13,231 nt of DNA from a virus. Taxonomy: Duplodnaviria > Heunggongvirae > Uroviricota > Caudoviricetes. The position numbers were made by a program, and so were the translations under genes. Where the stretch lies: positions 1 through 13,231 of IMG/VR virus record IMGVR_UViG_638341085_000008. One strand, 5' to 3'. Positions 1-13,231 of this stretch are shown piece after piece. Position 1 is the stretch's first letter. Every line of letters begins with the position of its first letter. The notes under the pieces are model-generated. The model saw only the letters and a list, made by a program, of their open reading frames with translations. It was not told where the DNA came from and searched no databases.

Positions 1-34
1 CGTACTGCAGGGTTTTCGCACTTGCTGACATCAC

Positions 35-57
35 AGGGGCTCCGGCCCCTTCTTCTT
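35..57 (+). terminator. candidate intrinsic terminator or attenuator upstream of the chaperone gene
   Basis: GC-rich hairpin AGGGGC-TCCG-GCCCCT (35-50) followed by a T-rich but interrupted tract TCTTCTT (51-57). Confidence 0.25.
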
Positions 58-119
58 AATCTCCTTTAATATCCGTCACGTCCACCGCCAGACATACTGC
101 TCTGAATTTACAAAGGAGT

Positions 120-461
120 ATGATCATGTCACAGACCCAGTCCGATACTTTTACGCTGTCTTATCCTTTCACCACTGCTGCAGGTACCAGAATTGAACAG
201 ATTGAACTGAAACGCCTGACAGTAAAAGACCTGAAGCAGGTGCGCAAAATCAACAAAGACCCGGCAGACTGGGACGAACCACTGATTGCCCGTAGCACCG
301 GTATCCTCCCGGAAGACCTCGATAACATGGATCTTGCCGACTATATGGAGCTGCAGAAACGATTTCAGAAAATCACTGGGCTGGGCAAGAGCGACAAAAA
401 CACTGATGCAGGCGCAGGGCCTGCTGGCGAGATGGTTCAGGTTTCAGCCGGGGGAGATTGA
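120..461 (+). CDS. tail assembly chaperone (P2 gpE / lambda gpG-like)
   Basis: 113-codon ORF immediately upstream of the tape measure gene; AGGAG at 114-118 is better spaced for the in-frame ATG at 126 than for ATG 120; overlapped by a shifted-frame extension as in tail chaperone pairs. Confidence 0.7.
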   Translation: MIMSQTQSDTFTLSYPFTTAAGTRIEQIELKRLTVKDLKQVRKINKDPADWDEPLIARSTGILPEDLDNMDLADYMELQKRFQKITGLGKSDKNTDAGAGPAGEMVQVSAGGD

Positions 462-543
462 TGCCCTCGATACTGACGATCTGGAGATGTGGCTGGAGCA
501 GGCTGAAGAGCAAATCAAAAGCGAGTTCGGCGACAATCAGTAA
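448..543 (+). CDS. E'-like frameshift extension of the chaperone (fusion product about 140 aa)
   Basis: Frame +1 relative to the chaperone stays open to TAA 541-543; protein-like acidic sequence only from about 451 (GEIDALDTDDLEMWLEQAEEQIKSEFGDNQ); G5 run 450-454 lies two codons before the chaperone stop TGA 459-461. Confidence 0.45.
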   Translation, partial: PGEIDALDTDDLEMWLEQAEEQIKSEFGDNQ

Positions 544-557
544 CAACGTATCACTTA

Positions 558-578
558 ACAGCCGCCAGTCGCGGCTGT
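558..578 (+). other. stem-loop in the E'-T intergenic leader
   Basis: ACAGCCGC (558-565) pairs with GCGGCTGT (571-578), loop CAGTC; not followed directly by a T tract (T7 run is at 609-615). Confidence 0.3.
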
Positions 579-635
579 TCTGCATGGGGTTCAGACACTT
601 CCCTTCCGTTTTTTTGCTTTCAGAGGATAGCCACC

Positions 636-3101
636 GTGGCCAGTGAATTTTCAGTCGGCGTCATTATTGGCGGCATTGTCGGGAGCAGCTTCCGCTCAGC
701 CGTCAGTGGCACCCGACGCGCCCTTGATTCCCTTGGTGATACCTCCCGCCGTCTGCAGGAACGCCAGAATGCCTTAACCCGGGCAACAGAACGTTATGGT
801 CAACTGGGTTCTTCCCGGATGCAGCATCTCAACAGCGAGTTGCTGCGGGTAAGCCGCACCATGGAGCAAATTGAACGTCAGCAGCGCCGTCTGTCAGCAG
901 TATCAGCCACCGGTGATGCGTTGAAGGCTAACCGCCTGGCGCTCTATGGTCAGGGTGCAGAAACCTATGCTATTGGCAGAACGCTGGGCGCACCGGTCAT
1001 GGCCTCGGTTAAACAATATGCCTCGTTTGAATCACAGTTGCGGGATATCAGTGTCACAGGAGACCTGGATGCAAAACAGGAACGTGCAATTGGCCTGGCT
1101 ATCAGACAGGCCTCGCTGAAGGTTAACCAACTGCAGGAGTCTCTGTTAGGGGGAGTCGGACAATTAGTTGCTGATGGTATGGCCCCCGAACGGGCAGCAA
1201 CGTTTGCAGAGATGCTTGGAAAGACCGCTACAGCAACCAAAGCCGATATGACCGACCTTGCCAAAATGACTTATGCCTTCAGCGATGCACTCAGAATCAC
1301 TGATGCGAAAGAACTTGAACAGGCGTTTGGCATTGCGGCAACAGGAGCCAAACTTGGGTCATTTGAGCTGAAGGATATGGCAAAAGCATTACCCGGTATG
1401 GCGAAAGCCTTCGCTGCTCGTGGTATTTATGGAAAAGATGCGATTACCCAGATTGTTGCCAGTCTGGAGGTCGGTAAAGGTAGTGGCTCTGCAGAGGAAG
1501 CGGTCACCAATATGTCCAACTGGCTGGCAGCAATGGGCCGCGGAGATACCATCCAGAAATATGCTAAAGCCGGGGTGGATTACCAGGGGTCAATGCAGAA
1601 TTACGTCGCTCAGGGTTTTTCGCAGTACGAAGCTTCACTGATGATTGCCAACCGTTTTATCGACAGTAAAGGCAAAGCGTTTTTGCAGCAATGGAAAGCT
1701 GCAGGAGCAAGAGGCGATCAGGAAGGTCAGCAGAAACTCATGGAGTCATTTGGTCTGGCTGAGGTCTTTACCGATATTCAGACTGTCAACCATTTACTGT
1801 CAATGCGACAGGGCTGGGATAAATACCTTTCCAGTAAGCAGGAAATGAATGCTCCGGCTGCAATGTCTACCCTGGATAAGGATGCTGCAAAGCAGAATGA
1901 TACGCTTGAAGGTCGCTGGCGCAGAATGCAGATCGGCTTTAATGATTCTGCTATCAGCATCGGGCAATCCTTGCGTCCGGCTTTGCTCCAGTTGGGTGAA
2001 ACATTTATTCCTTTAATGGACAGCGTCGGCAAATGGATAGCGGCAAATCCGCAGCTCGTCAGCAGCACCATAAAGGTTGTGGGCGCATTACTCGCTTTCA
2101 GGATGGCCACTATCGGTCTCAAGTTTGGGCTGAATCTCCTTATTTCCCCCTTTGTAAGCGTCTGGAAAAATGCTGTTTTACTTCGGGCCAACTGGCTTCG
2201 TCTGATGCTCGCACTGGGGGAAGGCGGTAAACTCCGCTGGCTGGTGACAGGCTTTGGTGCCGTCGCCAGAGGAACCAGAACACTGGGGGGGGTGCTCTCA
2301 GGGGGGCTGGTTCGCGGAATTATGAGCGCCGGGCGTGCCGTTCTCTGGATTGGCCGGGCGCTGCTGATGAATCCCATCGGTCTCGTTATCACCGCCGTCG
2401 CGGCAGCAGCTTACCTTATCTACCGCAACTGGGGCGCTGTCAGTAGCTGGTTTAAACAGCGCTGGGCTGACATTCAGGAAGCCTTTAACGGCGGCATCGC
2501 GGGAATTGGTAAACTGCTGGTTAACTGGTCTCCGGCAGGTCTGCTTTATAAAGCCTTTGCGGCTGCGCTGAAATATCTCGGCGTTGATTTGCCGGCGAAA
2601 TTCACCGACTTCGGTGGTCATCTTATTGACGGGCTGATAAATGGCATCAGAAACAAATGGGCGTCACTGAAAACCAGCATAACCGGAATGGGTGACAGCA
2701 TCAGTGACTGGTTCAGCGAAAAGCTGGGCATCCATTCACCGAGTCGCGTGTTTATAGGCTTTGGTGACAATATCGCGCAGGGTGCCGCCATTGGCCTGCA
2801 ACGGACCACTCCGCTTGCTGCACTGGCCGGGCAGCGCCTGGCCGCTGAAATGACACCGGATGTTCCCCGTATCCCGTCGCCGGAAATCATGGCTGCCGGA
2901 TATTCAGGCCGTGGCGCAACTGCAACCGGCGGTGGAGCGTCTGGCGGTATCCAGGTCAGCTTTAATCCTCATTTTTTCCTCAATGGTAAGGAAACCGCAG
3001 CGCCTGCCGGGCTGGCTGGTGCCCTGAATATGAGCCTGCATGAGCTGGAAAAAATGCTGGAGCGTCTGCTGGCTCAGAAACAACGTAAGGAGTACAGCTG
3101 A
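636..3101 (+). CDS. tail tape measure protein (P2 gpT / Mu gp42-like)
   Basis: 821-aa ORF, GTG start with GAGGAT 7 nt upstream; position directly after the chaperone pair; Ala/Gly/Leu-rich with hydrophobic glycine-zipper-like stretches; stop overlaps next start (TGATG). Confidence 0.85.
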   Translation: MASEFSVGVIIGGIVGSSFRSAVSGTRRALDSLGDTSRRLQERQNALTRATERYGQLGSSRMQHLNSELLRVSRTMEQIERQQRRLSAVSATGDALKANRLALYGQGAETYAIGRTLGAPVMASVKQYASFESQLRDISVTGDLDAKQERAIGLAIRQASLKVNQLQESLLGGVGQLVADGMAPERAATFAEMLGKTATATKADMTDLAKMTYAFSDALRITDAKELEQAFGIAATGAKLGSFELKDMAKALPGMAKAFAARGIYGKDAITQIVASLEVGKGSGSAEEAVTNMSNWLAAMGRGDTIQKYAKAGVDYQGSMQNYVAQGFSQYEASLMIANRFIDSKGKAFLQQWKAAGARGDQEGQQKLMESFGLAEVFTDIQTVNHLLSMRQGWDKYLSSKQEMNAPAAMSTLDKDAAKQNDTLEGRWRRMQIGFNDSAISIGQSLRPALLQLGETFIPLMDSVGKWIAANPQLVSSTIKVVGALLAFRMATIGLKFGLNLLISPFVSVWKNAVLLRANWLRLMLALGEGGKLRWLVTGFGAVARGTRTLGGVLSGGLVRGIMSAGRAVLWIGRALLMNPIGLVITAVAAAAYLIYRNWGAVSSWFKQRWADIQEAFNGGIAGIGKLLVNWSPAGLLYKAFAAALKYLGVDLPAKFTDFGGHLIDGLINGIRNKWASLKTSITGMGDSISDWFSEKLGIHSPSRVFIGFGDNIAQGAAIGLQRTTPLAALAGQRLAAEMTPDVPRIPSPEIMAAGYSGRGATATGGGASGGIQVSFNPHFFLNGKETAAPAGLAGALNMSLHELEKMLERLLAQKQRKEYS

Positions 3102-3985
3102 TGTTTGCCGTACTGGGTGATATTGAGTTTGAACTGATTACCTACTGGGACGGCTTCGAGGCCACGTTTGGCGTCGATTATGCGGAGCATGCCCGCATCG
3201 AGGGTAAACCCGGCCTGCAGTTCGTCGGCGACAGGCTGGACGAAATCCAGATAAGCCTGGTCTTCCATCAGCATTATTGTGTGCCCGACGTGGAGCTGGC
3301 GAGAGTGCGAACAGCCATGAAGGCCCATCAGGCACTGGCGCTGGTCTTCGGCAACGGTGACTATCGCGGCTGGTTCGTGATTACCGATGTGACCGCAACC
3401 AGCGAGCAGACAGACAGCACCGGTAACGTGCTGGCTGTCAGTGCCACCGTGTCTCTCCGGGAATACACCGGTGACCCGAAAAATCCTCTGCAACCGCCGG
3501 CAATACGCAGGCAGGTTCCCGGTGCCGGGGCCATATCTGGTGCTGTTCCATCGCCTTCCGGGGTGGCGCAGTTCGTCCGTAACGGCGTCAACTATGCGAA
3601 ACAGGCGCAGTCTGTACTCCAGACCACCATCAGTGCCGTTCGGGTGGCGCAGAAAATGAAGGGTAACCCCGTTGTCGCGCTGACCCGTGTGCCGGGACTG
3701 ATGAGCGGACTGGGTAATATATCCGGCGCTCTGGGGAAAAGTATTCCGGCGTTTAATGTACTCTCTGAATCCATGCCCGATGCCATCAGTCTGGCCAGAA
3801 CAGCCAGTGAGGCAGCCACGTATGTACAGCAGGCGCAGTCGGCGCTGAGTGGTGTGGACAAAAGAAATATTGCAGGTGCTCTGGATACCGTTTCCGGGCA
3901 GCTTAACGCCGCCGGCACAGCATTCAACCGCATGTCTCCGGGATTAAGTGCAATGGCCGCCAGAATACTGACGAGGAGTGTGTGA
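3101..3985 (+). CDS. gpU-like tail protein with about 150-aa C-terminal Ala/Ser/Gly/Gln-rich extension
   Basis: N-terminal ~135 aa recognised as P2 gpU-type tail terminator fold; AAGGAG 3087-3092; start overlaps tape measure stop; 294 aa versus about 160 aa expected for a plain gpU. Confidence 0.65.
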   Translation: MFAVLGDIEFELITYWDGFEATFGVDYAEHARIEGKPGLQFVGDRLDEIQISLVFHQHYCVPDVELARVRTAMKAHQALALVFGNGDYRGWFVITDVTATSEQTDSTGNVLAVSATVSLREYTGDPKNPLQPPAIRRQVPGAGAISGAVPSPSGVAQFVRNGVNYAKQAQSVLQTTISAVRVAQKMKGNPVVALTRVPGLMSGLGNISGALGKSIPAFNVLSESMPDAISLARTASEAATYVQQAQSALSGVDKRNIAGALDTVSGQLNAAGTAFNRMSPGLSAMAARILTRSV

Positions 3986-4197
3986 TGTTTCTTGAACATA
4001 TTACCCGTGACGGAGAGCGCTGGGATTCGCTGGCATGGCAGTACTACGGTGACCCGCTGGGCTATCCCCGGATTATTGCAGCCAATCCGCACGTGGCCAT
4101 TACGCCAGTGCTGCCCTCCGGGTTGTTGTTACTGATCCCGGTTATTGAGGCTGAAGATGCCCGTACAGAAGAGGATATTGCCCCATGGCTGAGATAA
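3985..4197 (+). CDS. tail protein X-like (small LysM-like protein)
   Basis: 70-aa ORF with YYG...AANP...LP pattern recognised as P2 gpX family; GAGGAG 3973-3978 six nt before ATG 3985 (GTG 3982 is an alternative start); overlaps upstream stop TGATG. Confidence 0.65.
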   Translation: MFLEHITRDGERWDSLAWQYYGDPLGYPRIIAANPHVAITPVLPSGLLLLIPVIEAEDARTEEDIAPWLR

Positions 4198-5339
4198 ACA
4201 GTACTGCGCAAGCCACATCAGCGTTAACCGGCGTCAGCGATGTGCTGACGCCGGTATTCACTCTGTGGTATTTGCAGAAAAACATCACCTCTGATATCGC
4301 GCCTTATGTCACCCGTGTGGTCTGGAGCGATAACATCAAAAATGAGTCTGATACCATTGAGGTGGAGCTGGACGACACCGATGGCCGCTGGCTGGATAAG
4401 TGGTATCCGGGCAAGGGTGACACGCTGACGCTGAAAATGGGTTATCAGGGCGAGAAACTGCTGTCCTACGGTACATTCTCAATAGACGAGATCGAAGTGA
4501 GTTCGCCCGCGTCCGTTGTCGCTATCCGTGGGGTGGCCACCTCGGTTAACAGTGCTCTGCGGACTAAATCCAGCCGTGGTTTTGAGAACACCACGCTGGC
4601 AGCTGTTGCGGGTCGGATTGCCAGAAAGCACCGGCTGAAACTGGTGGGCAGCATTGAGTCCATCAGAATCGACCGGGTGACCCAGTATGCTGAAACCGAC
4701 GTGGGTTTTCTGCGCCGGCTGGCCAGCGAGTATGGTTATGCAGTGAAAGTGGTCAGTGACCAGTTGATTTTTTCTCATCTGGCCACATTGCGCAGTCAGG
4801 AGCCGGTCAGGCAGTTAAAACCGCAGGATGTGGCCCACTTTTCCCTGCGTGACACCATCAACCGGGTCTATAAATCTGCAAAGGTAAAACACCAGAAAAG
4901 CAGCAGTAAAAAACTGATCGTCTACGAAGCTGATGGTGGTACCCGTGAAAGCGACAAAAAGCTCAAAGGCGGTAAGGTTACCAGCGCTGACTCACTTAAA
5001 GTTAACAGCCGCGTCAGCGACCCGGACAGTGCCCGGATTAAAGCGGATTCAGCACTGGCCAGACATAACGAATACCAGCAGAACGGCTCCCTGACGCTGA
5101 CGGGAACGCCTCAACTGACAGCAGGCAACAAAATTGAACTGGTGGGCTTTGGACAATTATCCGGTCCATGGCTGATAATCACTGCCCGCCATGCGTTTGA
5201 GCGTAACAGCGGCTACACCACAGAGCTGGAAGTGGCACGGGGGCCAGTCACAAGAGGGAAAAAACAAAAAACTCAGAAACTCACGGTTTATCACCCGGAT
5301 GGCAGTACATCGACGGTGATTAAGGAGAAGAAAAAATGA
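4185..5339 (+). CDS. gpD-like tail/baseplate hub protein (phage late control D family)
   Basis: 384-aa ORF, size and position match P2 gpD / Mu P; start overlaps the gpX-like gene; stop overlaps next start (ATGA). Confidence 0.8.
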   Translation: MAEINSTAQATSALTGVSDVLTPVFTLWYLQKNITSDIAPYVTRVVWSDNIKNESDTIEVELDDTDGRWLDKWYPGKGDTLTLKMGYQGEKLLSYGTFSIDEIEVSSPASVVAIRGVATSVNSALRTKSSRGFENTTLAAVAGRIARKHRLKLVGSIESIRIDRVTQYAETDVGFLRRLASEYGYAVKVVSDQLIFSHLATLRSQEPVRQLKPQDVAHFSLRDTINRVYKSAKVKHQKSSSKKLIVYEADGGTRESDKKLKGGKVTSADSLKVNSRVSDPDSARIKADSALARHNEYQQNGSLTLTGTPQLTAGNKIELVGFGQLSGPWLIITARHAFERNSGYTTELEVARGPVTRGKKQKTQKLTVYHPDGSTSTVIKEKKK

Positions 5340-5848
5340 CTGGTGTCACCCGCCAGGTCGGTACGGTCAGTGCCGTTGATGCCGACAGGGTTCAGGCCCG
5401 CGTTCGTCTGCCTGAATGCGATAATCTGCGCACAAACTGGCTTAACGTGCTGCAGCGCAATACCCAGGATAACAAGGATTACTGGCTCCCTGACGTGGGG
5501 GAGCAGGTTGAGGTGCTGCTCGATGCCAACGGCGAGGATGGTGTTATTCTGGGCGCGGTGTACTCAGACGTCGATAAACCGCCGTTCGGTGATAAAAACG
5601 TCCGGGGCACGAAGTACGCTGATGGCGCGGAGTTCAGTTATGACCGCGCGACCCATACGCTGACGGTCAAAGGAGGTATCGAGCATGTGGTGATCGAGGT
5701 TGCAGTGGGTATTAGTCTGAAAGGGAAAACCATTGATTTGACAGCTGACACTATCATGGTGAACGGCAATCTTGAAATCAAAGGGAGTACCCATGCGACT
5801 GGTAACATATTTGCAGATGGACAGAATTCCAATCATCACTCTCACTAA
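5336..5848 (+). CDS. gpV-like baseplate spike protein
   Basis: 170-aa ORF after gpD; AAGGAG 5322-5327; recognised as P2 gpV / Mu gp45 type; C-terminal His cluster NSNHHSH. Confidence 0.8.
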   Translation: MTGVTRQVGTVSAVDADRVQARVRLPECDNLRTNWLNVLQRNTQDNKDYWLPDVGEQVEVLLDANGEDGVILGAVYSDVDKPPFGDKNVRGTKYADGAEFSYDRATHTLTVKGGIEHVVIEVAVGISLKGKTIDLTADTIMVNGNLEIKGSTHATGNIFADGQNSNHHSH

Positions 5849-5929
5849 TTTTTCAAGTATGTGACTCCATTTCCTCTCCCGCGGATATGATAGAATTTTT
5901 TAATTAACACTAATTTGGCGGGGACTTAA

Positions 5930-6649
5930 ATGCGGTTATCAAGATCCTTATGTAAAGTAGTTGGCGATGTCATTGCTAACTCAGGCTCTCATGCAGCTTT
6001 AGATACGTTATTTCTTACTTCGGGAGCACCAGGAAACCCTCCGGCAGGATCTCATAGTACAAAATGGAAAGACTGGTTATTTCTTGCAGGGCAAGATCCA
6101 GATACAGATAGTCTGGCAGTTCTGGGCGGAGTAATTGAGGAGTTTATGGATTTACCTCCAAAAGAAGGTACTCCCGAATATGCAGAATGGAAGGAAAAAC
6201 GAGACAGAATTGAAGCTGTGTTACAAGAGAATGGACTTAGATATTATCGTTTTGGTCGAGTGTTGCCTGAAGGCCACATCCCGTCACACAATATGGATTA
6301 CCCAGAGACCATAATTACTTATCAACAGCCAGTAATGCCAGAAAAAGTTGAGAACTTACTGGAAAGGCTGGTCAAAGGCTTACAGCGAGCAATGCATCCA
6401 CTTACTCATAGGCGAAAAGGAAGCCAGTCATTATCTTTTAGCAATGAATATGACGTGCAAGACCTTCTCCATGCATTGCTCAGACCATGGGTTCAGGACA
6501 TCCGCCCAGAAGAGTTTACTCCAAGTTACGCTGGTTCAAGTACTCGAATGGATTTTTTGTTACCTGCGCATAAATTAGTACTGGAAACCAAAATTGTTCG
6601 TGATCGTTCTCATGCAAAGAAAATCGGCGATGAACTTATTATCGATTAG
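5930..6649 (+). CDS. IS2-truncated cargo gene, 5' part (239 codons); restriction-endonuclease-like D-x10-E-x-K signature, function unknown
   Basis: ATG 5930 with GGGGA 5 nt upstream; low-GC sequence; motif D208 (6551-6553), E219 (6584-6586), K221 (6590-6592) in RMDFLL...LVLETKIV; reading frame ends in the TAG that is the first 3 nt of IS2. Confidence 0.7.
   Translation: MRLSRSLCKVVGDVIANSGSHAALDTLFLTSGAPGNPPAGSHSTKWKDWLFLAGQDPDTDSLAVLGGVIEEFMDLPPKEGTPEYAEWKEKRDRIEAVLQENGLRYYRFGRVLPEGHIPSHNMDYPETIITYQQPVMPEKVENLLERLVKGLQRAMHPLTHRRKGSQSLSFSNEYDVQDLLHALLRPWVQDIRPEEFTPSYAGSSTRMDFLLPAHKLVLETKIVRDRSHAKKIGDELIID
6642..6646. repeat. IS2 target site duplication, left copy (TCGAT)
   Basis: TCGAT directly flanks the IS2 left end; identical to 7978-7982. 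Confidence 0.9.
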
Positions 6650-6737
6650 ACTGGCCCCCTGAATCTCCAGACAACCAGTATCACTTAAATAAGTGATAGT
6701 CTTAATACTAGTTTTTAGACTAGTCATTGGAGAACAG

Positions 6738-7103
6738 ATGATTGATGTCTTAGGGCCGGAGAAACGCAGACGGCGTACCACACAGGAAAAGATCGCAATT
6801 GTTCAGCAGAGCTTTGAACCGGGGATGACGGTCTCCCTCGTTGCCCGGCAACATGGTGTAGCAGCCAGCCAGTTATTTCTCTGGCGTAAGCAATACCAGG
6901 AAGGAAGTCTTACTGCTGTCGCCGCCGGAGAACAGGTTGTTCCTGCCTCTGAACTTGCTGCCGCCATGAAGCAGATTAAAGAACTCCAGCGCCTGCTCGG
7001 CAAGAAAACGATGGAAAATGAACTCCTCAAAGAAGCCGTTGAATATGGACGGGCAAAAAAGTGGATAGCGCACGCGCCCTTATTGCCCGGGGATGGGGAG
7101 TAA
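6738..7103 (+). CDS. insC: IS2 OrfA (InsC) transposase regulatory/DNA-binding protein
   Basis: Sequence recognised as IS2 InsC ([24 protein letters not shown]...); ATG 6738 is the likely true start, the longer ORF from 6693 is an upstream extension. Confidence 0.95.
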
Positions 7104-7966
7104 GCTTAGTCAGCCGTTGTCTCCGGGTGTCGCGTGCGCAGTTGCACGTCATTCTCAGACGAACCGATGACTGGATGGATGGCCGCCGCAGTCGTCACAC
7201 TGATGATACGGATGTGCTTCTCCGTATACACCATGTTATCGGAGAGCTGCCCACGTATGGTTATCGTCGGGTATGGGCGCTGCTTCGCAGACAGGCAGAA
7301 CTTGATGGTATGCCTGCGATCAATGCCAAACGTGTTTACCGGATCATGCGCCAGAATGCGCTGTTGCTTGAGCGAAAACCTGCTGTACCGCCATCGAAAC
7401 GGGCACATACAGGCAGAGTGGCCGTGAAAGAAAGCAATCAGCGATGGTGCTCTGACGGGTTCGAGTTCTGCTGTGATAACGGAGAGAGACTGCGTGTCAC
7501 GTTCGCGCTGGACTGCTGTGATCGTGAGGCACTGCACTGGGCGGTGACTACCGGCGGCTTCAACAGTGAAACAGTACAGGACGTCATGCTGGGAGCGGTG
7601 GAACGCCGCTTCGGCAACGATCTTCCGTCGTCTCCAGTGGAGTGGCTGACGGATAATGGTTCATGCTACCGGGCTAATGAAACACGCCAGTTCGCCCGGA
7701 TGTTGGGACTTGAACCGAAGAACACGGCGGTGCGGAGTCCGGAGAGTAACGGAATAGCAGAGAGCTTCGTGAAAACGATAAAGCGTGACTACATCAGTAT
7801 CATGCCCAAACCAGACGGGTTAACGGCAGCAAAGAACCTTGCAGAGGCGTTCGAGCATTATAACGAATGGCATCCGCATAGTGCGCTGGGTTATCGCTCG
7901 CCACGGGAATATCTGCGGCAGCGGGCTTGTAATGGGTTAAGTGATAACAGATGTCTGGAAATATAG
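7061..7966 (+). CDS. insD: IS2 OrfB (InsD) transposase catalytic domain; full transposase made as InsCD by -1 frameshift
   Basis: Sequence recognised as IS2 InsD; sits in the -1 frame relative to insC; slippery A-AAA-AAG at 7055-7061. Confidence 0.95.
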
Positions 7967-7977
7967 GGGCAAATCCA

Positions 7978-7982
7978 TCGAT
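7978..7982. repeat. IS2 target site duplication, right copy (TCGAT)
   Basis: Identical to 6642-6646, directly flanks the IS2 right end. Confidence 0.9.
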
Positions 7983-8141
7983 ATAGAGCATTATCGTCGG
8001 CACTCTGATTGCAAAAATCTCTGGTGTGTCATCTACGATCCGAACCAGCTTATTACTAATTCTGAGGGGCTGAAATCTGATCTTGAGGGGAAGAGAGTTT
8101 CTAAAGACGGAGAACTTATCGTCAAGGTTTTCGTAATTTAA
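7983..8141 (+). pseudogene. 3' fragment (53 codons) of the IS2-disrupted cargo gene
   Basis: After removing IS2 plus one TCGAT copy this segment is in frame with 5930-6646, giving a 292-aa ORF ending TAA 8139-8141. Confidence 0.75.
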
Positions 8142-8195
8142 CAAACGTATCAATAACTCCTTTTTAAATCCCTTTAATATCGTTCTTTTCTTACT

Positions 8196-8211
8196 GGGGC
8201 AATACTGCCCC
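8196..8211 (+). promoter_or_regulatory. hairpin abutting the gpW-like start codon
   Basis: GGGGCA (8196-8201) pairs with TGCCCC (8206-8211), loop ATAC; ATG at 8213; no Shine-Dalgarno within 5-10 nt of the ATG. Confidence 0.35.
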
Positions 8212-8212
8212 C

Positions 8213-8560
8213 ATGAAAACGACCTCAGTATTCTGGCAACCGGCTCTGCAGGCTCCCGGCGAAATCGTCCGGGGGCTGGATGATATCCAGCAGTCCATCC
8301 AGATCATCCTGCGGACTCCCCGCGGCAGCGACCCGCATCGCCCAGAGTTCGGCAGCAATCTGCACCTTTATATCGACTGGCCTGTCGACCGGGCCATTCC
8401 GCATGTGGTTCGCGAATCCGTCGATGCCATCAGGCGCTGGGAACCCCGCTGCCAGCTTATGTCGGTTAAACCCGCCGTCGACGGCGAACATCTTACGCTC
8501 CGGGTGAGCTGGAAAGGCTCAGACGGACAACCCCGTACTCAGGAACTGCTATGGCGCTGA
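8213..8560 (+). CDS. gpW-like baseplate wedge protein (gp25 family)
   Basis: 115-aa ORF, size and position match P2 gpW / Mu gp46; overlaps next gene by 10 nt. Confidence 0.8.
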   Translation: MKTTSVFWQPALQAPGEIVRGLDDIQQSIQIILRTPRGSDPHRPEFGSNLHLYIDWPVDRAIPHVVRESVDAIRRWEPRCQLMSVKPAVDGEHLTLRVSWKGSDGQPRTQELLWR

Positions 8561-9654
8561 CAGAACCCGATTTTATTGAACTCGATGCCGATAAAATCAC
8601 GGCAGAAATGATTGCGAAATATGAAGCGGATACCGGCAAAACGTTGTACCCGGCACAGGCAGAACGTCTGCTGATAGATCTGTGGGCCTATCGCGAAATG
8701 CTGGTCAGGGTGGCGGTACAGGAGGCGGCGAAGCTGAATCTGGTCGCCTTTTCCCGGGAGCCGATGATTGATTACCTCGGAGAACTGGTTGGTGTATACC
8801 GCCTTCCCGCGCAGCCTGCCACCACCACACTTCAGTTCTCTGTGGATGAGGCACTGGCCATTGATGTGCTGATCCCGGCAGGCACCCGCGTCAGCGCTTC
8901 CGACAGCGTGATTTTTGCCACCGATACAGATGTAGTGCTGAAGGCCGGTTTGCAACTGGTCAATGCCCCTGCCACCTGTACTGAGCCGGGTACCTCTGGC
9001 AACGGCTGGCAACCGGCTCAGGTCAGTCAGCTGCTTGATGAGATTGATAACGTTGACCTGCTGGTGACCAATCTGACGGCCAGCACTGGCGGTTCAGAGC
9101 AGGAAGACAATGACCGACTCCGGGAGCGTATCAGGCTGGCCCCGGAGTCATTCACCAATGCCGGAAGCCGTGGTGCATACCGTTTTCATGCCATGGGGGC
9201 GCATCCCAGTATTGTCGACGTCGCTGTTCTTTCTCCCGTTCCCGGTACTGTCGAGCTGTATCCACTGCTCAGCACTGGTCTGCCAGACAGCAGTATCCTC
9301 ACTCTGGTAGAGAGTTTCTGTTCTGACGAAAAAGTCAGACCACTCACTGATACCGTGCGGGCTAAAACACCTGTTCAGGTGGATTACACCATTGAAGCCA
9401 GGATTACGATCTATCGTGATCAGGATGCAATGTCGGTAAAGGACAACGCTAACAGCGCCATACAGAACTGGGTGGCATCACGTGCCGCCACGCTGGGACG
9501 CGATATTGTCCCCAGCCAGATTATCAGTGCATTGTCCGTTTCCGGGGGGTACCAGGTTGAACTGGTGACACCGGCACTGCGGGTGGTTGCAGAAAACGAA
9601 TGGGCAAACTGTACGGCAATCACTCTTAACGTGACAGGGGTGTCCGATGGCTGA
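8551..9654 (+). CDS. gpJ-like baseplate protein
   Basis: 367-aa ORF following gpW in the conserved W-J-I order; start overlaps gpW stop, stop overlaps gpI start. Confidence 0.8.
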   Translation: MALTEPDFIELDADKITAEMIAKYEADTGKTLYPAQAERLLIDLWAYREMLVRVAVQEAAKLNLVAFSREPMIDYLGELVGVYRLPAQPATTTLQFSVDEALAIDVLIPAGTRVSASDSVIFATDTDVVLKAGLQLVNAPATCTEPGTSGNGWQPAQVSQLLDEIDNVDLLVTNLTASTGGSEQEDNDRLRERIRLAPESFTNAGSRGAYRFHAMGAHPSIVDVAVLSPVPGTVELYPLLSTGLPDSSILTLVESFCSDEKVRPLTDTVRAKTPVQVDYTIEARITIYRDQDAMSVKDNANSAIQNWVASRAATLGRDIVPSQIISALSVSGGYQVELVTPALRVVAENEWANCTAITLNVTGVSDG

Positions 9655-10225
9655 GGCGCTACGACTACCGCCACCGCTTGAGGGTGATATCAGTCTCAAA
9701 ACGCTGGGAAGACTGGCCGAACGGCTGGATAACATCGACCTGAGCGTACTGATGGTCTGTCTCGTCGATATCGTCGACAGTTCCGCGCTGCCATGGCTGG
9801 GCGAGCAGTTCTCGTTGTTCGGCGATGGCTGGGAACTGGCGGAATCGGACGATGTACGCCGCATGCTTATCAAATCCGCTATCGAGCTACACCGCTATAA
9901 AGGAACGCCGTGGTCAATCCGGGAAATTATCCGCCGTTTTGGCTTTGGCGAAGTAGAGCTGATAGAAGGTACGGGGCAGATCGGCTACGACGGTAAACAC
10001 AGTTACAACGGACTTTTCGTCCATGGCGATGCACAAGCCTGGGCAGTCTATCGGGTCATCCTTCAACAGCCCATCACTAATGATCAGGCAGCGCTGTTAC
10101 GTCAGACGCTCGCTGCCTTTGCTCCGGCTCGCTGCCATCTGGCAAGCCTGGAATATCAGTCTGTCGCCATTCGATACAACAGTACTACCCGTTATGACGG
10201 TAGTTACAACCACGGGAGCAGTTAA
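9647..10225 (+). CDS. gpI-like baseplate protein
   Basis: 192-aa ORF in the conserved W-J-I position, immediately before the tail fibre gene. Confidence 0.75.
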   Translation: MAEALRLPPPLEGDISLKTLGRLAERLDNIDLSVLMVCLVDIVDSSALPWLGEQFSLFGDGWELAESDDVRRMLIKSAIELHRYKGTPWSIREIIRRFGFGEVELIEGTGQIGYDGKHSYNGLFVHGDAQAWAVYRVILQQPITNDQAALLRQTLAAFAPARCHLASLEYQSVAIRYNSTTRYDGSYNHGSS

Positions 10226-10227
10226 TT

Positions 10228-11172
10228 ATGGCAAATCTACCTGAAACCCCACAGTGGGAAGACGGCATCTACCAGATTGAGGTCTCTGACCCCGTTCTGG
10301 GCGGGCCTGACGGAATTTCTAACCGTCAGGGTAAACAACTGGCCAGCCGCACGCTGTACCTGAAGCAACAGGTTGAAAAAGGCGGGGCTGACCTTGCGAA
10401 ACACATCGCGGCAGCAGACCCGCATGCCCAGTATGCACCGAAAGCCAGTCCGGCATTCACCGGCACACCAACAGCACCTACACCTGCAAATGGCGATAAC
10501 AGCAAAAAGCTGGCGACGACGGAGTTTGTGGCCAAAGCACTTGCGGCGCTTGCAGGCAGCGCCCCTGAGACACTGGATACGCTTAAAGAGCTGGCTGACG
10601 CTCTCGGTAATGATCCAAACTTTGCGACTACGGTACTGAACAAGCTGGCGGAAAAGCTGGCTAAAGACCAGAACGGCGCAGATATTCCTGATCCTGCGCT
10701 GTTTGTCAAAAACCTTGGTTTGGGAGAAGGTACTCCAGCTATTGGCGTTCCGTTCTTCTGGCCCTCCGCGGCAATGCCAAATACTGTAATCGACAGCTGG
10801 TCCAGTATGGTGTTTTTGAAGTTCAACGGGGCGAAATTTTCTGCCACTGATTACCCTGTGCTGGCGAAAGTGTTTCCTTCGCTGGTATTACCTGAAGCCC
10901 GCGGTGATTTCATTCGTATCTGGGATGACGGGCGAGGTGTAGACGGTGGTCGCGAATTATTAAGCTGGCAGGCAGCTACAAACTTTTCTCAGTTTGCCGG
11001 GAATATAGGCGATGGTGCGGGCCACGCAATTAATTTTCATGATGGTATCGCCGGAAATCAGCCAGGATTTTCACGATTTAATTTCACCAGTAACTCTGTG
11101 GGTGATGGTGTGAATTTTGTTGCCGTCAGACCGCGAAATATTGCATTTAACTTTCTGGTGAGGGCTAAATGA
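10228..11172 (+). CDS. tail fibre protein: constant N-terminal part plus currently expressed variable C-terminal part (Sv)
   Basis: 314-aa ORF; GGGAG 10214-10218; N-terminus with QWEDGIYQIE motif typical of P2 H / Mu S fibres; a recombination site lies inside the gene at 10703-10728. Confidence 0.85.
   Translation: MANLPETPQWEDGIYQIEVSDPVLGGPDGISNRQGKQLASRTLYLKQQVEKGGADLAKHIAAADPHAQYAPKASPAFTGTPTAPTPANGDNSKKLATTEFVAKALAALAGSAPETLDTLKELADALGNDPNFATTVLNKLAEKLAKDQNGADIPDPALFVKNLGLGEGTPAIGVPFFWPSAAMPNTVIDSWSSMVFLKFNGAKFSATDYPVLAKVFPSLVLPEARGDFIRIWDDGRGVDGGRELLSWQAATNFSQFAGNIGDGAGHAINFHDGIAGNQPGFSRFNFTSNSVGDGVNFVAVRPRNIAFNFLVRAK
10703..10728. other. left recombination (crossover) site of the invertible segment, hix/gix-like
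   Basis: TTGTCAAAAACC-TT-GGTTTGGGAGAA matches the 26-bp TTnTCnnAAACC-nn-GGTTTnnGAnAA pattern; 10715-10729 is an exact inverted copy of 12542-12556. Confidence 0.6.
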
Positions 11173-11765
11173 TGACCCCAATTTTTGATGAAAATGGACT
11201 GGCTACAGTGCCGGGCGATATGCGTTGTTTTTATTATGATGCAGTAACGTATGAATATACGGGCTGGTCTGATGAATATATTAATACTGGTGTAAGTATG
11301 CCCGCCTGTTCCACTGGTATTGACCCGGGCGAAAACATTCCGGGAAAAGTGGCAGTATTTACGGGTAAGGGATGGAGCCATGAAGAAGACCATCGCAATG
11401 AGACTGTTTACTCAACAGAAAATGGTGCAACTGTTACAGTGGATTATATCGGTGCCATCAAAGACGGTTATGTCACGCTTTCACCGTTAACGCCATACGA
11501 TAAATGGGATGGTGAGAAATGGGTGACAGATTCTGAGGCACAACACGGTGCCGCAGTAGAAGCGGCAGAAGCACAGCGCCAGTCACTTATTGATGCAGCA
11601 ATGGCTTCCATTAGTCTGATTCAGCTGAAATTACGGGCCGGGCGGAAGCTGATGCAGGCAGAGACCTCCCGACTTAACACTGTGCTGGATTACATTGACG
11701 CGGTGACGGCAACAGATACCAGCACCGCGCCGGATGTCATCTGGCCTGAACTGCCGGAGGAGTAG
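11169..11765 (+). CDS. tail fibre assembly protein (Tfa; P2 gpG / Mu U-like), currently expressed orientation
   Basis: 198-aa ORF overlapping the fibre stop; C-terminal motif LDYIDAV...DTSTAPDVIWP shared with the inverted paralogue. Confidence 0.8.
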   Translation: MMTPIFDENGLATVPGDMRCFYYDAVTYEYTGWSDEYINTGVSMPACSTGIDPGENIPGKVAVFTGKGWSHEEDHRNETVYSTENGATVTVDYIGAIKDGYVTLSPLTPYDKWDGEKWVTDSEAQHGAAVEAAEAQRQSLIDAAMASISLIQLKLRAGRKLMQAETSRLNTVLDYIDAVTATDTSTAPDVIWPELPEE

Positions 11766-12177
11766 GCCATTCAATATCTGGCGCACTGGAAGTATCGACC
11801 AGCTCCAGTGCGTCCAGATAATCCAGCCACAAATTATATTGCGCCAGTTCCTCACCTTTCAGACGACCAATAGCCGCTTTACCAGCCCATTGTTTACTGT
11901 TCATATAATCGTTGGCCTGATTAATCAATTGCTGCTTTTTCAGTTCGGCTGCAGCAATCTGTTCCTCATGTGTTGGTGGTGGAATTTCAGACCATGCAGG
12001 AAAACCATTTTCTCCAGCGATACGGATTTTTCCTTTCGGCGGTAATCCGGAAAACTCAATATACACTTGCTCATCAACTTCAACAGCATCATCTGGCCAT
12101 GAGTCAGCTTGCGTGTAATCCTCTTTCATCTCCAAGGGATAGAAAGAGTTTGTAGTCGCGGAATATATGTAATTCAT
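11737..12177 (-). CDS. alternative tail fibre assembly protein (Tfa'), inverted orientation
   Basis: 146-aa ORF on the minus strand with GGAG upstream of ATG 12177; C-terminus LDYLDALELVDTSSAPDIEWP resembles Tfa. Confidence 0.75.
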   Translation of the reverse strand: MNYIYSATTNSFYPLEMKEDYTQADSWPDDAVEVDEQVYIEFSGLPPKGKIRIAGENGFPAWSEIPPPTHEEQIAAAELKKQQLINQANDYMNSKQWAGKAAIGRLKGEELAQYNLWLDYLDALELVDTSSAPDIEWPTPPAVQAR

Positions 12178-12203
12178 TTTTCACTCCATAAAGTTAAAAG
12201 AAA

Positions 12204-12554
12204 TTAACACCCTAATGCGAAAAATGAAGCACCGATACCGGGTACGCCTGCTCTGGAAATAAATTTCACCGGGTCCTGGTTATAACCGGCACAAGCTATA
12301 TAGCCAACATTTGCACTGCCGGGAGTGTAATCCTGAGTTGCAAATACCCGCAGACATCTATTCGGAAATGCAATCGGAAAATAGGTTACTGTGTCCTGAG
12401 ACGTCAGCGAAACATCAATTGGCCCCCATTGAATAATTAAACCGGATGGCAATTTTTGATATCCAGTACCTGAAACAGAAAGCGTGAAGCTACCCATATC
12501 AGGTATCTGATTCGTCCCTGTCCCCACATTCCTTTTTGCCGCTTCTCCCAAACC
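12204..12554 (-). CDS. alternative tail fibre C-terminal segment (Sv'), promoterless and start-less until inversion
   Basis: Minus-strand frame is open from the right crossover site to stop at 12204-12206; after inversion it fuses in frame to the fibre constant part (...[16 protein letters not shown]...); the ORF-track start is a TTG inside the crossover site. Confidence 0.65.
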
Positions 12555-12568
12555 AACGTTTTCGTCTT
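12543..12568. other. right recombination (crossover) site of the invertible segment
   Basis: TTCTCCCAAACC-AA-CGTTTTCGTCTT; inner half identical as inverted repeat to the left site, outer half degenerate; 55 nt upstream of the invertase start. Confidence 0.6.
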
Positions 12569-12622
12569 AACTCCCACCTATACCAGCTATGTATTTTTAA
12601 CAAAACAAAGAGGATATTTTTC

Positions 12623-13195
12623 ATGCAAATTGGCTACATTCGTGTGTCAACAAATGACCAGAATACAGATTTACAACGAAACGCACTGAACTGCGCAGGA
12701 TGTGAACTGATTTTTGAGGATAAAATCAGCGGAACAAAGTCAGCCCGACCGGGATTGAAAAAGCTGCTCAGAACGTTATCAGAAGGAGATACGCTCGTTG
12801 TCTGGAAGCTGGATAGGCTGGGCAGAAGCATGAAACACCTTATCACTCTTATTGAGGAACTGCGGGGAAAAGGGGGTAATTTCCGTAGTCTTACAGACAG
12901 CATTGATACGTCAACACCCATGGGACGTTTCTTTTTTCACGTCATGGGGGCTTTAGCGGAAATGGAGCGCGAATTAATAGTTGAACGAACACTGGCCGGA
13001 CTTGAGGCAGCACGTGCACAGGGGCGTATTGGCGGACGCCGTCCGAAACTGACAAAAGAGCAACATGAACAAATAGCAAGGCTGATCAAAAATGGCTATA
13101 GCAGGAAACAGTTGGCAATTATTTACGATATCGGTATATCGACGATTTATCGTTATCACCCTGTAGAGGAACTCCAAACTCAAGCTAAGTTGTAA
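12623..13195 (+). CDS. serine DNA invertase, Gin/Pin/Cin/Hin family
   Basis: 190-aa ORF from ATG 12623 (GAGGAT RBS 12609-12614); N-terminal resolvase motif GYIRVSTNDQ with catalytic Ser, C-terminal helix-turn-helix; the 12536 ORF-track start runs through the crossover site and has no RBS. Confidence 0.9.
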   Translation: MQIGYIRVSTNDQNTDLQRNALNCAGCELIFEDKISGTKSARPGLKKLLRTLSEGDTLVVWKLDRLGRSMKHLITLIEELRGKGGNFRSLTDSIDTSTPMGRFFFHVMGALAEMERELIVERTLAGLEAARAQGRIGGRRPKLTKEQHEQIARLIKNGYSRKQLAIIYDIGISTIYRYHPVEELQTQAKL

Positions 13196-13231
13196 TTCTT
13201 TTTCAGATATTGAAATGCCGCAGCGATGTAA

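Follow-up and report, generated by a model that had tools for sequence, protein, structure and literature searches.

Background

Of the characterised relatives of the protein discussed here, the AgaN nuclease is the closest. For bAgaN/EcbAgaN of the BPAN system (PDB 23wq; PMC10620215, PMC13535254), it has been reported that the D-EVK motif is essential, that the C-terminal domain alone is toxic, that the N-terminal domain holds the dimer in an autoinhibited state, and that the active form is an octamer with a robust non-specific DNase activity (PMC13535254). Here we consider a gene found in a 13,231-nucleotide stretch of DNA (IMG/VR virus record IMGVR_UViG_638341085_000008, positions 1 to 13,231; hereafter, the window), which, according to its list of open reading frames (ORFs), represents a temperate phage's tail module and which matches the genome of Escherichia coli B7A. 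An AT-rich island that separates the baseplate spike gene V from the gpW/gp25-type baseplate gene W is, with little room for doubt, accessory cargo encoding a regulated PD-(D/E)xK nuclease of 291 residues. In the window itself, this gene is interrupted by the insertion sequence (IS) IS2.

The likeness of the prophage protein to bAgaN extends over both sequence and layout: the C-terminal PD-(D/E)xK domains are homologous, with the D-x10-E-x-K residues aligned one by one, and in both proteins a helical N-terminal regulatory domain is followed by a flexible linker and a C-terminal nuclease. However, the N-terminal domains are unrelated, with all matches limited to the nuclease half, and the prophage protein is a stand-alone one and shorter by 100 residues; neither the window nor any of the homologue loci that were read contains an Argonaute/PIWI gene. 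The same nuclease domain serves as the effector of BPAN, a system built on a long-B Argonaute from prokaryotes, and of some Detocs variants.

AbiJ and the AbiJ-like proteins resemble the prophage protein in size (~270-300 amino acids), apparently in their two-domain architecture, and in being encoded by single genes on mobile elements; moreover, the N-terminal domain of the prophage protein recurs in a large set of Abi_C/HEPN proteins. The difference lies in the effector, a PF18742 DNase instead of a HEPN RNase (PF14355), and in the N-terminal domain itself, which matches no Pfam family, AbiJ_NTD included, and is not covered by the AbiJ profile of PADLOC. Shedu (SduA, DUF4263) is likewise a single-protein defence system that combines a variable N-terminal regulatory domain with an oligomeric C-terminal PD-(D/E)xK domain; it gives a weak Foldseek match (8ti9) and is the direct neighbour of one homologue, but the prophage protein matches neither the SduA_C nor the DUF4263 model.

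Finally, temperate phages and their satellites are known to carry defence genes at hotspots (P2/P4, PMC9122126), and prophages to encode single-gene defences (BstA, 10.1101/2020.07.13.199331; Tha, PMC11087260). Like these, the V-W junction offers a temperate phage an AT-rich, variable slot for cargo whose position is fixed; the defence-like contents of the slot differ among relatives (the nuclease gene as opposed to DUF4145 genes). Unlike the P2 Z/fun or P4 sites, however, the slot lies inside the V-W baseplate block of a BcepMu-like phage, and the label "hotspot" is weakly supported because by far the most relatives have nothing in the slot.

A rare accessory gene between the spike and gpW genes

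In the window, gene V (5336-5848, plus strand; 170 amino acids; "phage baseplate assembly protein V" in RefSeq), which forms the left boundary of the insert, is separated from gene W (8213-8560, plus strand; 115 amino acids; "GPW/gp25 family protein"), which forms the right boundary, by 2364 bp, including 1331 bp of IS2. Without IS2, the island has a GC content of 41.5%, whereas the tail genes on its two sides reach 54.3% (636-5848) and 54.7% (8213-11172); the contrast noticed in the first-pass annotation, made from the letters alone, is therefore real. With the related tail module defined by a V-D / W-J probe, 638 of 5426 complete E. coli genomes were found to contain it, and only 18 of the 5426 contain the island, which is thus missing from ~97% of the related E. 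coli prophages.

In every sampled relative outside the 18 carriers, the spacer between V and W is only ~55 bp long. The sample consisted of 59 full matches from a spread listing, whose spans fit the short spacer after allowing for differences in the length of V, and of four loci that were read completely. Klebsiella phage KP12, which has been isolated, shows the short spacer as well, and so do related prophages from ~11 other enterobacterial species. Accordingly, V normally abuts W, as had been assumed at first sight, and the comparison of the junction across relatives yields a mostly empty site that is occupied by the nuclease gene or by other cargo in a few of them.

The homology to the empty sites stops at the V stop codon (5848) and restarts at ~8161, so that the inserted DNA corresponds approximately to positions 5849-8160. 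The 3' end of the insert (8142-8160, plus strand), as delimited by the alignment to empty sites, contains no intrinsic terminator detectable by scanning, and the segment 8161-8212 (plus strand) is the retained ancestral V-W spacer, as seen from its alignment to the spacers, 55 bp long, of four prophages in which the site is empty. This spacer ends with a GC-rich hairpin, GGGGCA-ATA-CTGCCCC (8196-8212), which reaches the gpW start codon and is kept in all these empty-site relatives (L003-L006); the hairpin may be involved in the control or coupling of W translation. The junctions of the insert carry similar 9-mers, TTTTTCAAG at 5849-5857 and TTTTTAAAT at 8161-8169, both of which resemble a single TTTCTTAAAC of the empty site and may be the footprint of the cargo insertion.

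The loose 9-bp similarity of the sequences flanking the insert, together with the legacy NCBI name of "transposase" that is attached to many members of the protein cluster, could be taken to mean that the island is a small transposable element. This reading has next to no probability and can be considered effectively refuted: the protein shows no transposase or integrase domain in Pfam or NCBIfam, no terminal inverted repeats bound the island, each carrier genome has it in one place (median 1), and the current RefSeq name is "PD-(D/E)XK nuclease domain-containing protein".

The slot has been used more than once. A gene that is 91% identical to the nuclease gene occupies the same position in a diverged prophage lineage whose V protein (200 amino acids) is only 63% identical; this copy is named from Yersinia enterocolitica in the source records and is found also on an IMG/VR contig. 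In a distant relative, a prophage of Pseudomonas anatoliensis, the V-W slot holds two reverse-strand genes with a DUF4145 domain (L041, 3423-4868), a family of the HEPN clan, so that the junction appears to carry different defence-like cargo in different phages. The two P. anatoliensis genes are paralogues encoding proteins of 225 and 220 amino acids, each with DUF4145 and a R-x-x-x-N-x-x-V-H-P-G motif.

Thus, the island combines presence/absence polymorphism among close relatives with a deviant base composition, and its absence from nearly all related E. coli prophages bears out the suggestion that it is accessory cargo at a variable spot. The segment can be described as a moron, i.e. a single accessory gene of ~0.98 kb inserted directly after the V stop codon.

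Interruption by IS2 and reconstruction of the gene

The copy of IS2 in the window (6647-7977, plus strand; 1331 bp) comprises the orfA/orfB transposase genes (ORFs 6693-7103 and 7061-7966) and terminal inverted repeats, and is flanked by the target-site duplication TCGAT (left copy, 6642-6646; right copy, 7978-7982); the corresponding position in strain B7A is annotated in RefSeq as "IS3-like element IS2 family transposase". Codon 239 is the last one of the nuclease gene before the element, which begins with TAG and thereby supplies a stop codon. The last part of the gene (7983-8141, plus strand), which codes for residues 240-291 and the stop codon in an open frame, lies beyond the element and contributes the closing core strands and helix to the nuclease fold; truncation at residue 239 removes the last three core strands and a helix. 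The nuclease gene in the window is, hence, a pseudogene and is dead here.

Removal of IS2 and of one TCGAT copy, that is, joining of 5930-6646 to 7983-8141, yields an open frame of 876 nucleotides that encodes 291 amino acids plus the stop. The single open frame postulated in the first-pass annotation was thereby recovered, with a length smaller by one than the 292 residues given there, where the stop had been counted; among the structural statements checked, this was the sole error. The rebuilt protein is identical to the uninterrupted WP_001371051.1 of E. coli JNEC-KY202 (named "PD-(D/E)XK nuclease domain-containing protein"); at the DNA level, the identity to the uninterrupted JNEC-KY202 copy extends over all 1028 bp of the island minus IS2.

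Uninterrupted islands are found in 11 of the 18 E. coli carriers. B7A is the sole carrier with IS2 alone, five strains of enterotoxigenic E. coli (ETEC) have the same IS2 plus IS100 at island nucleotide 517, and strain ATCC 43896 has a separate insertion of ISCro1 (IS66 family) at island nucleotide 228. Altogether, three different insertion sequences (IS2, IS100 and ISCro1) have landed in this 876-bp gene in ETEC-type strains. The two independent primary knock-outs in a gene of 0.9 kb are suggestive of a cost of the intact gene; they are also accounted for by the IS-rich nature of ETEC genomes and by the AT-rich target. Examples of IS-hit loci are those of ATCC 43896 (L015, 832-3447) and of strain 503025 (L016, 4084-5885).

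The C-terminal nuclease domain

The first part of the nuclease domain (residues 139-239; 6344-6646, plus strand) contains the catalytic codons D208 (6551-6553), E219 (6584-6586) and K221 (6590-6592), which form an invariant triad. With Pfam, residues 143-286 match PF18742 (REase_DpnII-MboI) with E=4e-47 and 160 bits, as compared to the gathering cutoff of 27, over profile positions 2-147 of 150; the protein, which had at first not been placed in any named family, thus belongs to a defined one. The PADLOC model Aga_Helical-REase is matched with 1.8e-30 by residues 136-274 (profile positions 224-362 of 378), i.e. in its nuclease part only. The sole significant sequence match to a solved structure is EcbAgaN (PDB 23wq; phmmer E=2e-5, chain residues 230-344 of 390), and in this alignment D208 corresponds to D298, E219 to E309 and K221 to K311, i.e. 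to the essential triad of the Argonaute-associated enzyme.

The D208-x10-E219-x-K221 motif, which had been spotted in the first reading of the sequence, is invariant in the 68 homologues of the family alignment. Also invariant in these 68 proteins are E173, D178, H181, R185, E194-E195 and R224-D225, as well as a C-terminal cluster, H242-Y243/H246/C249/W253-C254/Y257-D258. In the AlphaFold model, the catalytic residues are located on the adjacent strands 207-211 and 216-222, and the predicted secondary structure of the C-terminal part comprises a strand at 251-257, a helix at 266-273 and further strands at 275-279 and 282-290. The modelled protein displays the alpha-beta-alpha core fold of restriction endonucleases. 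It should be noted that the full-length AlphaFold2 model and the family alignment were built on the cluster representative P0001, which has A71 where the window protein has E71; this does not affect the conclusions.

Other searches returned little. A Foldseek comparison of the full model with the PDB gave nothing at E<=0.001, the weak top matches being Can2, Shedu and Kpn2I; NCBIfam had no matching family, and in PHROGs only the unannotated family phrog_29450 was matched. None of the profile searches assigned the protein to a structural or housekeeping family, and, as described above, the gene is not conserved at its position in the relatives. Taken together, the profile matches and the aligned triad support the earlier proposal of a PD-(D/E)xK nuclease, and the C-terminal domain is predicted from its sequence to be a DNase of the AgaN/"DpnII-MboI" clade.

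An N-terminal domain shared with other toxic effectors

The N-terminal domain (residues 1-115; 5930-6274, plus strand), modelled as five helices and a beta-hairpin, is proposed to be a sensor, regulatory or assembly module. It is followed by a variable, disordered interdomain linker (approximately residues 116-138; 6275-6343, plus strand), with a predicted local distance difference test score (pLDDT) below 50 for residues 116-132 and the least conserved stretch of the alignment. When the domain was modelled alone from a diverse alignment, the pLDDT reached 96.6 and the predicted template modelling score 0.89, and the AlphaFold models agree with the helical N-terminal region noted at the outset. 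No Pfam family covers residues 1-140 at E<=1.

A search of 1.84 billion representative proteins with a profile of the N-terminal domain retrieved 405 clusters (at 50% identity), 205 of them at E<=1e-10. Among 38 long relatives, 21 carry Abi_C (HEPN), three TIR_2, one a TIR domain of the CAP12/Pycsar type, and three a restriction endonuclease (REase) domain of the PF18742 type; one protein kinase and one Hsp70 fragment plus Abi_C were also encountered. In these long relatives, Pfam detects only the effector domains, and the PADLOC AbiJ model, which matches 19 of the 38, covers only the C-terminal halves in the individual members that were checked; a kinship of the N-terminal domain with lactococcal AbiJ itself is, accordingly, no more than a possibility. 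Because the domain precedes HEPN, TIR or REase effectors, it can be read as a regulatory or sensor module; such combination of one domain with interchangeable toxic effectors is the signature of a module of this kind. Two relatives, P0219 (510 amino acids) and P0263 (902 amino acids), have unusual architectures; those seen are an Hsp70 substrate-binding fragment followed by the N-terminal domain and Abi_C, and, in the 902-residue protein, an internal N-terminal domain.

The N-terminal 115 residues appear to be a helical, death-fold-like module. Bacterial death-like domains (bDLDs), the bacterial CARD and effector-associated domains (EADs) have been described by Kaur et al. 2020/2021 (PMC7159879, PMC8195603; PDB 8ss1, 9frr); under the "EAD principle" (PMC8195603), a locus should encode, in addition, a sensor or core protein that bears another copy of the same domain. 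An hmmsearch of six-frame ORFs of the window and of the fetched loci found the gene itself and no second copy of the N-terminal domain, nor was there a sequence-profile match of the domain to a described bDLD/EAD family (Pfam, E<=1). We tentatively consider, as a possible although rather unlikely extension, that the domain is a genuine DD/CARD-like assembly module and that its REase, HEPN and TIR forms are widespread one-protein immune sensors of phages and defence islands, in which infection-triggered homotypic polymerisation would activate the effectors. Should this be the case, the family would represent a single-chain prokaryotic counterpart of animal death-domain signalling that needs no STAND/NLR partner.

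Homologues and their genomic contexts

Searches with the nuclease returned 3375 hits at E<=1e-3, many of them to the nuclease domain only, and more than 100 clusters of full-length homologues with 67-100% identity. The full-length family is ~70% identical across Enterobacteriaceae, Pseudomonas, Burkholderiales, Permianibacter and Alishewanella; a tblastn search against 50,697 deposited phages gave one weak match only, in a Clostridioides phage. In every locus that was read the homologue is solitary, and across ~12 homologue contexts there was no methyltransferase, antitoxin, sensor or other conserved neighbour.

This distribution bears on the possibility of a restriction endonuclease (type II, similar to DpnII/MboI) that acts on its own, which would cut unmethylated GATC and rely on the Dam methylation of the host for self-protection. 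The Pfam family bears the name REase_DpnII-MboI, and E. coli is Dam-positive; no cognate methyltransferase adjoins the gene, so that such an enzyme would depend on a methylase supplied by the host. However, the DpnII family proper, PF04556, is not matched even at E<=1, the similarity being confined to the generic catalytic core of 150 residues (PF18742), and ~70%-identical full-length homologues without an adjacent methyltransferase are present in P. aeruginosa, Burkholderiales, Permianibacter and Alishewanella. As Pseudomonas and Burkholderia are not known to possess Dam, constitutive cutting of GATC would kill these hosts. Furthermore, an N-terminal domain common to HEPN RNases and TIR proteins fits a regulatory module and not DNA recognition, and AgaN, the nearest relative to have been characterised, cleaves DNA non-specifically (PMC13535254). 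We regard this possibility as highly improbable, and the Dam-dependent restriction enzyme is largely rejected on the basis of the missing PF04556 match, the Dam-less taxa and the shared N-terminal domain.

The neighbourhoods of the homologues are diverse. Specifically, the Salmonella homologue is surrounded by TIR_2, DUF4365-TPR and integrase genes; the one of Permianibacter has Shedu SduA_C as its direct neighbour; in Alishewanella, HsdR and a reverse transcriptase are found nearby, and in Enterobacter, a giant YobI-ATPase protein. Another E. coli homologue resides in an integrase-AlpA-Rep island that resembles a phage satellite, those of P. aeruginosa in small variable islands and in an integrative and conjugative element (ICE), and that of Pantoea in a Tlde1 toxin region. 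Homologues carried by other phages are located beside the endolysin gene or adjoin the portal gene inside the head-packaging gene block.

In P. aeruginosa (L007-L011, 3516-5738), the homologue is always accompanied by an upstream gene pair, in several chromosomal and ICE places. The pair encodes an unannotated protein of 234 amino acids and a trypsin-like protease of 483 amino acids, neither with the N-terminal domain; it is lineage-specific and may be a separate defence system.

The regular location of the homologues on or beside mobile elements (prophages, the integrase-AlpA-Rep island, the ICE, the Pantoea polymorphic-toxin region) is also what would be expected of a selfish toxin or addiction nuclease, or of a weapon against plasmids and rival prophages, which would favour the carrier element rather than fight lytic phages. 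By analogy with AgaN, an unrestrained nuclease domain would be toxic, and its recurrent inactivation by insertion sequences among ETEC lineages is suggestive of a cost. Against this stands the lack of a conserved antitoxin-like partner, the neighbouring small ORFs differing in every context, whereas the swapping of HEPN, TIR and REase effectors and the adjacent Shedu, TIR, type I restriction-modification, reverse transcriptase and YobI genes form the pattern of anti-phage immunity. We therefore consider the selfish toxin unlikely, with the reservation that it overlaps mechanistically with anti-phage defence and differs from it mainly in the target.

Proposed mode of action and expression

The reading that we favour, and hold to be reasonably probable, is that of a moron-borne DNase that would act, in the manner of AbiJ, as a one-protein system of defence or abortive infection. 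An intact gene in a lysogen would be expressed from its own promoter, with the N-terminal domain presumably keeping the nuclease inactive by autoinhibition. A cue of infection sensed via the N-terminal domain would then change the oligomeric state, and this change would switch on non-specific cleavage of DNA, which would stop the replication of the incoming phage, possibly at the expense of the cell. The outcome would be a single-chain abortive infection or superinfection exclusion, as in AbiJ or Tha. Such an anti-phage or exclusion function had been the leading conjecture of the first-pass annotation, and it now receives independent computational support from the effector domain, known from defence systems, from the N-terminal domain, common to HEPN and TIR proteins, and from the contexts of defence islands and mobile elements; the function itself is inferred.

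The leader of the cargo gene (5849-5929, plus strand) contains a candidate extended -10 promoter, with TG at 5888-5889 and TAGAAT at 5891-5896, and a purine-rich ribosome-binding site, GGCGGGGA, at 5918-5925. In an alignment of four unrelated flanking contexts, the element TGATAGAAT (TGATATAAT in one case) is conserved ~34 nucleotides upstream of the ATG; because this extended -10 is retained where the flanks are unrelated, the gene seems to bring its promoter along from place to place, with the conserved element as the candidate for this promoter of the moron gene.

Several observations weigh against the defence hypothesis or against parts of it. The gene is disrupted by insertion sequences in 7 of the 18 E. 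coli carriers, which fits cost or toxicity as well as simple dispensability. The searchable literature is silent on the family, and no experiment linking it to phage resistance was found there; similarly, no whole-protein model matches in PADLOC 2.0, where the hits are to domains only, or in NCBIfam. The pLDDT of the full-length model is 40-65 for residues 160-205, amounting to medium confidence in parts of the nuclease domain. A scan for the consensus -35/-10 elements called no credible sigma-70 promoter 5' of the gene. Lastly, the gene has the orientation of the late tail operon and no terminator separates the two, so that expression in the lytic cycle of the prophage itself is possible.

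The last point leads to another candidate function, namely, a nuclease of the prophage's own lytic cycle that would be co-transcribed with the tail genes and would degrade host DNA or process DNA. The gene indeed starts 81 nucleotides after V, the terminator scan predicts none on either side of it, and in other phages homologues occur among late genes (endolysin, portal, terminase). Nevertheless, the gene is absent from ~97% of the close prophages, and isolated phages (KP12, PhiKM-type) lack it as well; it is, accordingly, dispensable for the phage. Many homologues reside in non-phage chromosomal islands, the gene travels with its own conserved -10 element, and its position varies between phages, as would be expected of cargo. 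A role in the lytic cycle is, therefore, quite improbable.

Novelty and implications of the defence hypothesis

The nuclease domain, the concept of morons and the swapping of effectors are already known. What is newly described here as a unit is the N-terminal domain, its HEPN, TIR and REase siblings, and the V-W slot of BcepMu-like prophages, no description of which was found in PADLOC 2.0, NCBIfam, the PHROGs annotation or the searchable literature. If the intact gene protects against phage, it would define a new, large family of single-gene defence. In this family, the well-understood DNase of the AgaN type, activated by oligomerisation, is coupled to a putative domain for sensing or assembly, not described before, by which HEPN and TIR effectors are driven as well. 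To the known cargo slots of temperate phages can be added the baseplate junction between V and W in BcepMu-like prophages; the 291-residue protein offers a compact system for dissecting activation by a possibly death-fold-like domain, and the IS knock-outs of ETEC strains provide a natural on/off series for weighing cost against benefit. For the window itself, the message is more modest, as its nuclease gene is a pseudogene.

The host prophage and its tail module

The host phage is BcepMu/phiE255-like and combines a head of the Mu type with a tail of the P2 type. The upstream genes of the prophage belong to the gp436 and Gp37 families, as labelled in RefSeq; PhiKM and KP12 are the nearest deposited phages, and the Burkholderia phage phiE255 is similar at a distance. 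The chromosomal site of the prophage varies by strain: B7A carries it next to ppiD-hupB, and JNEC-KY202 within the pdu region.

According to the ORF list, the tape measure gene (636-3101) is followed by gpU-, gpX- and gpD-like genes, which precede the spike gene V, and genes for gpJ, gpI, the tail fibre and an invertase lie 3' of gpW. Upstream of the tape measure gene, a tail-assembly-chaperone gene (120-461) is overlapped by an 85-residue ORF (286-543) in another frame, resembling the gpE/E' frameshift pair of P2-type tails; in the overlap region (120-543) no classical XXXYYYZ slippery heptamer was seen, the only runs noted being A5 at 396 and G5 at 450.

At the other end of the module, inverted repeats of 21 nucleotides, 95% complementary, are located at 10709-10729 and 12542-12562 (with 12536-13195). 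They enclose the 3' part of the tail-fibre gene, two opposite-strand tail-fibre-assembly genes and an alternative fibre tip on the reverse strand, and a serine-recombinase (invertase) gene lies downstream of them. The repeats contain the AAACCTTGGTTT core known from the Gin/Cin/Pin crossover sites; together with the invertase, they look like an invertible host-range switch of the G-segment type.

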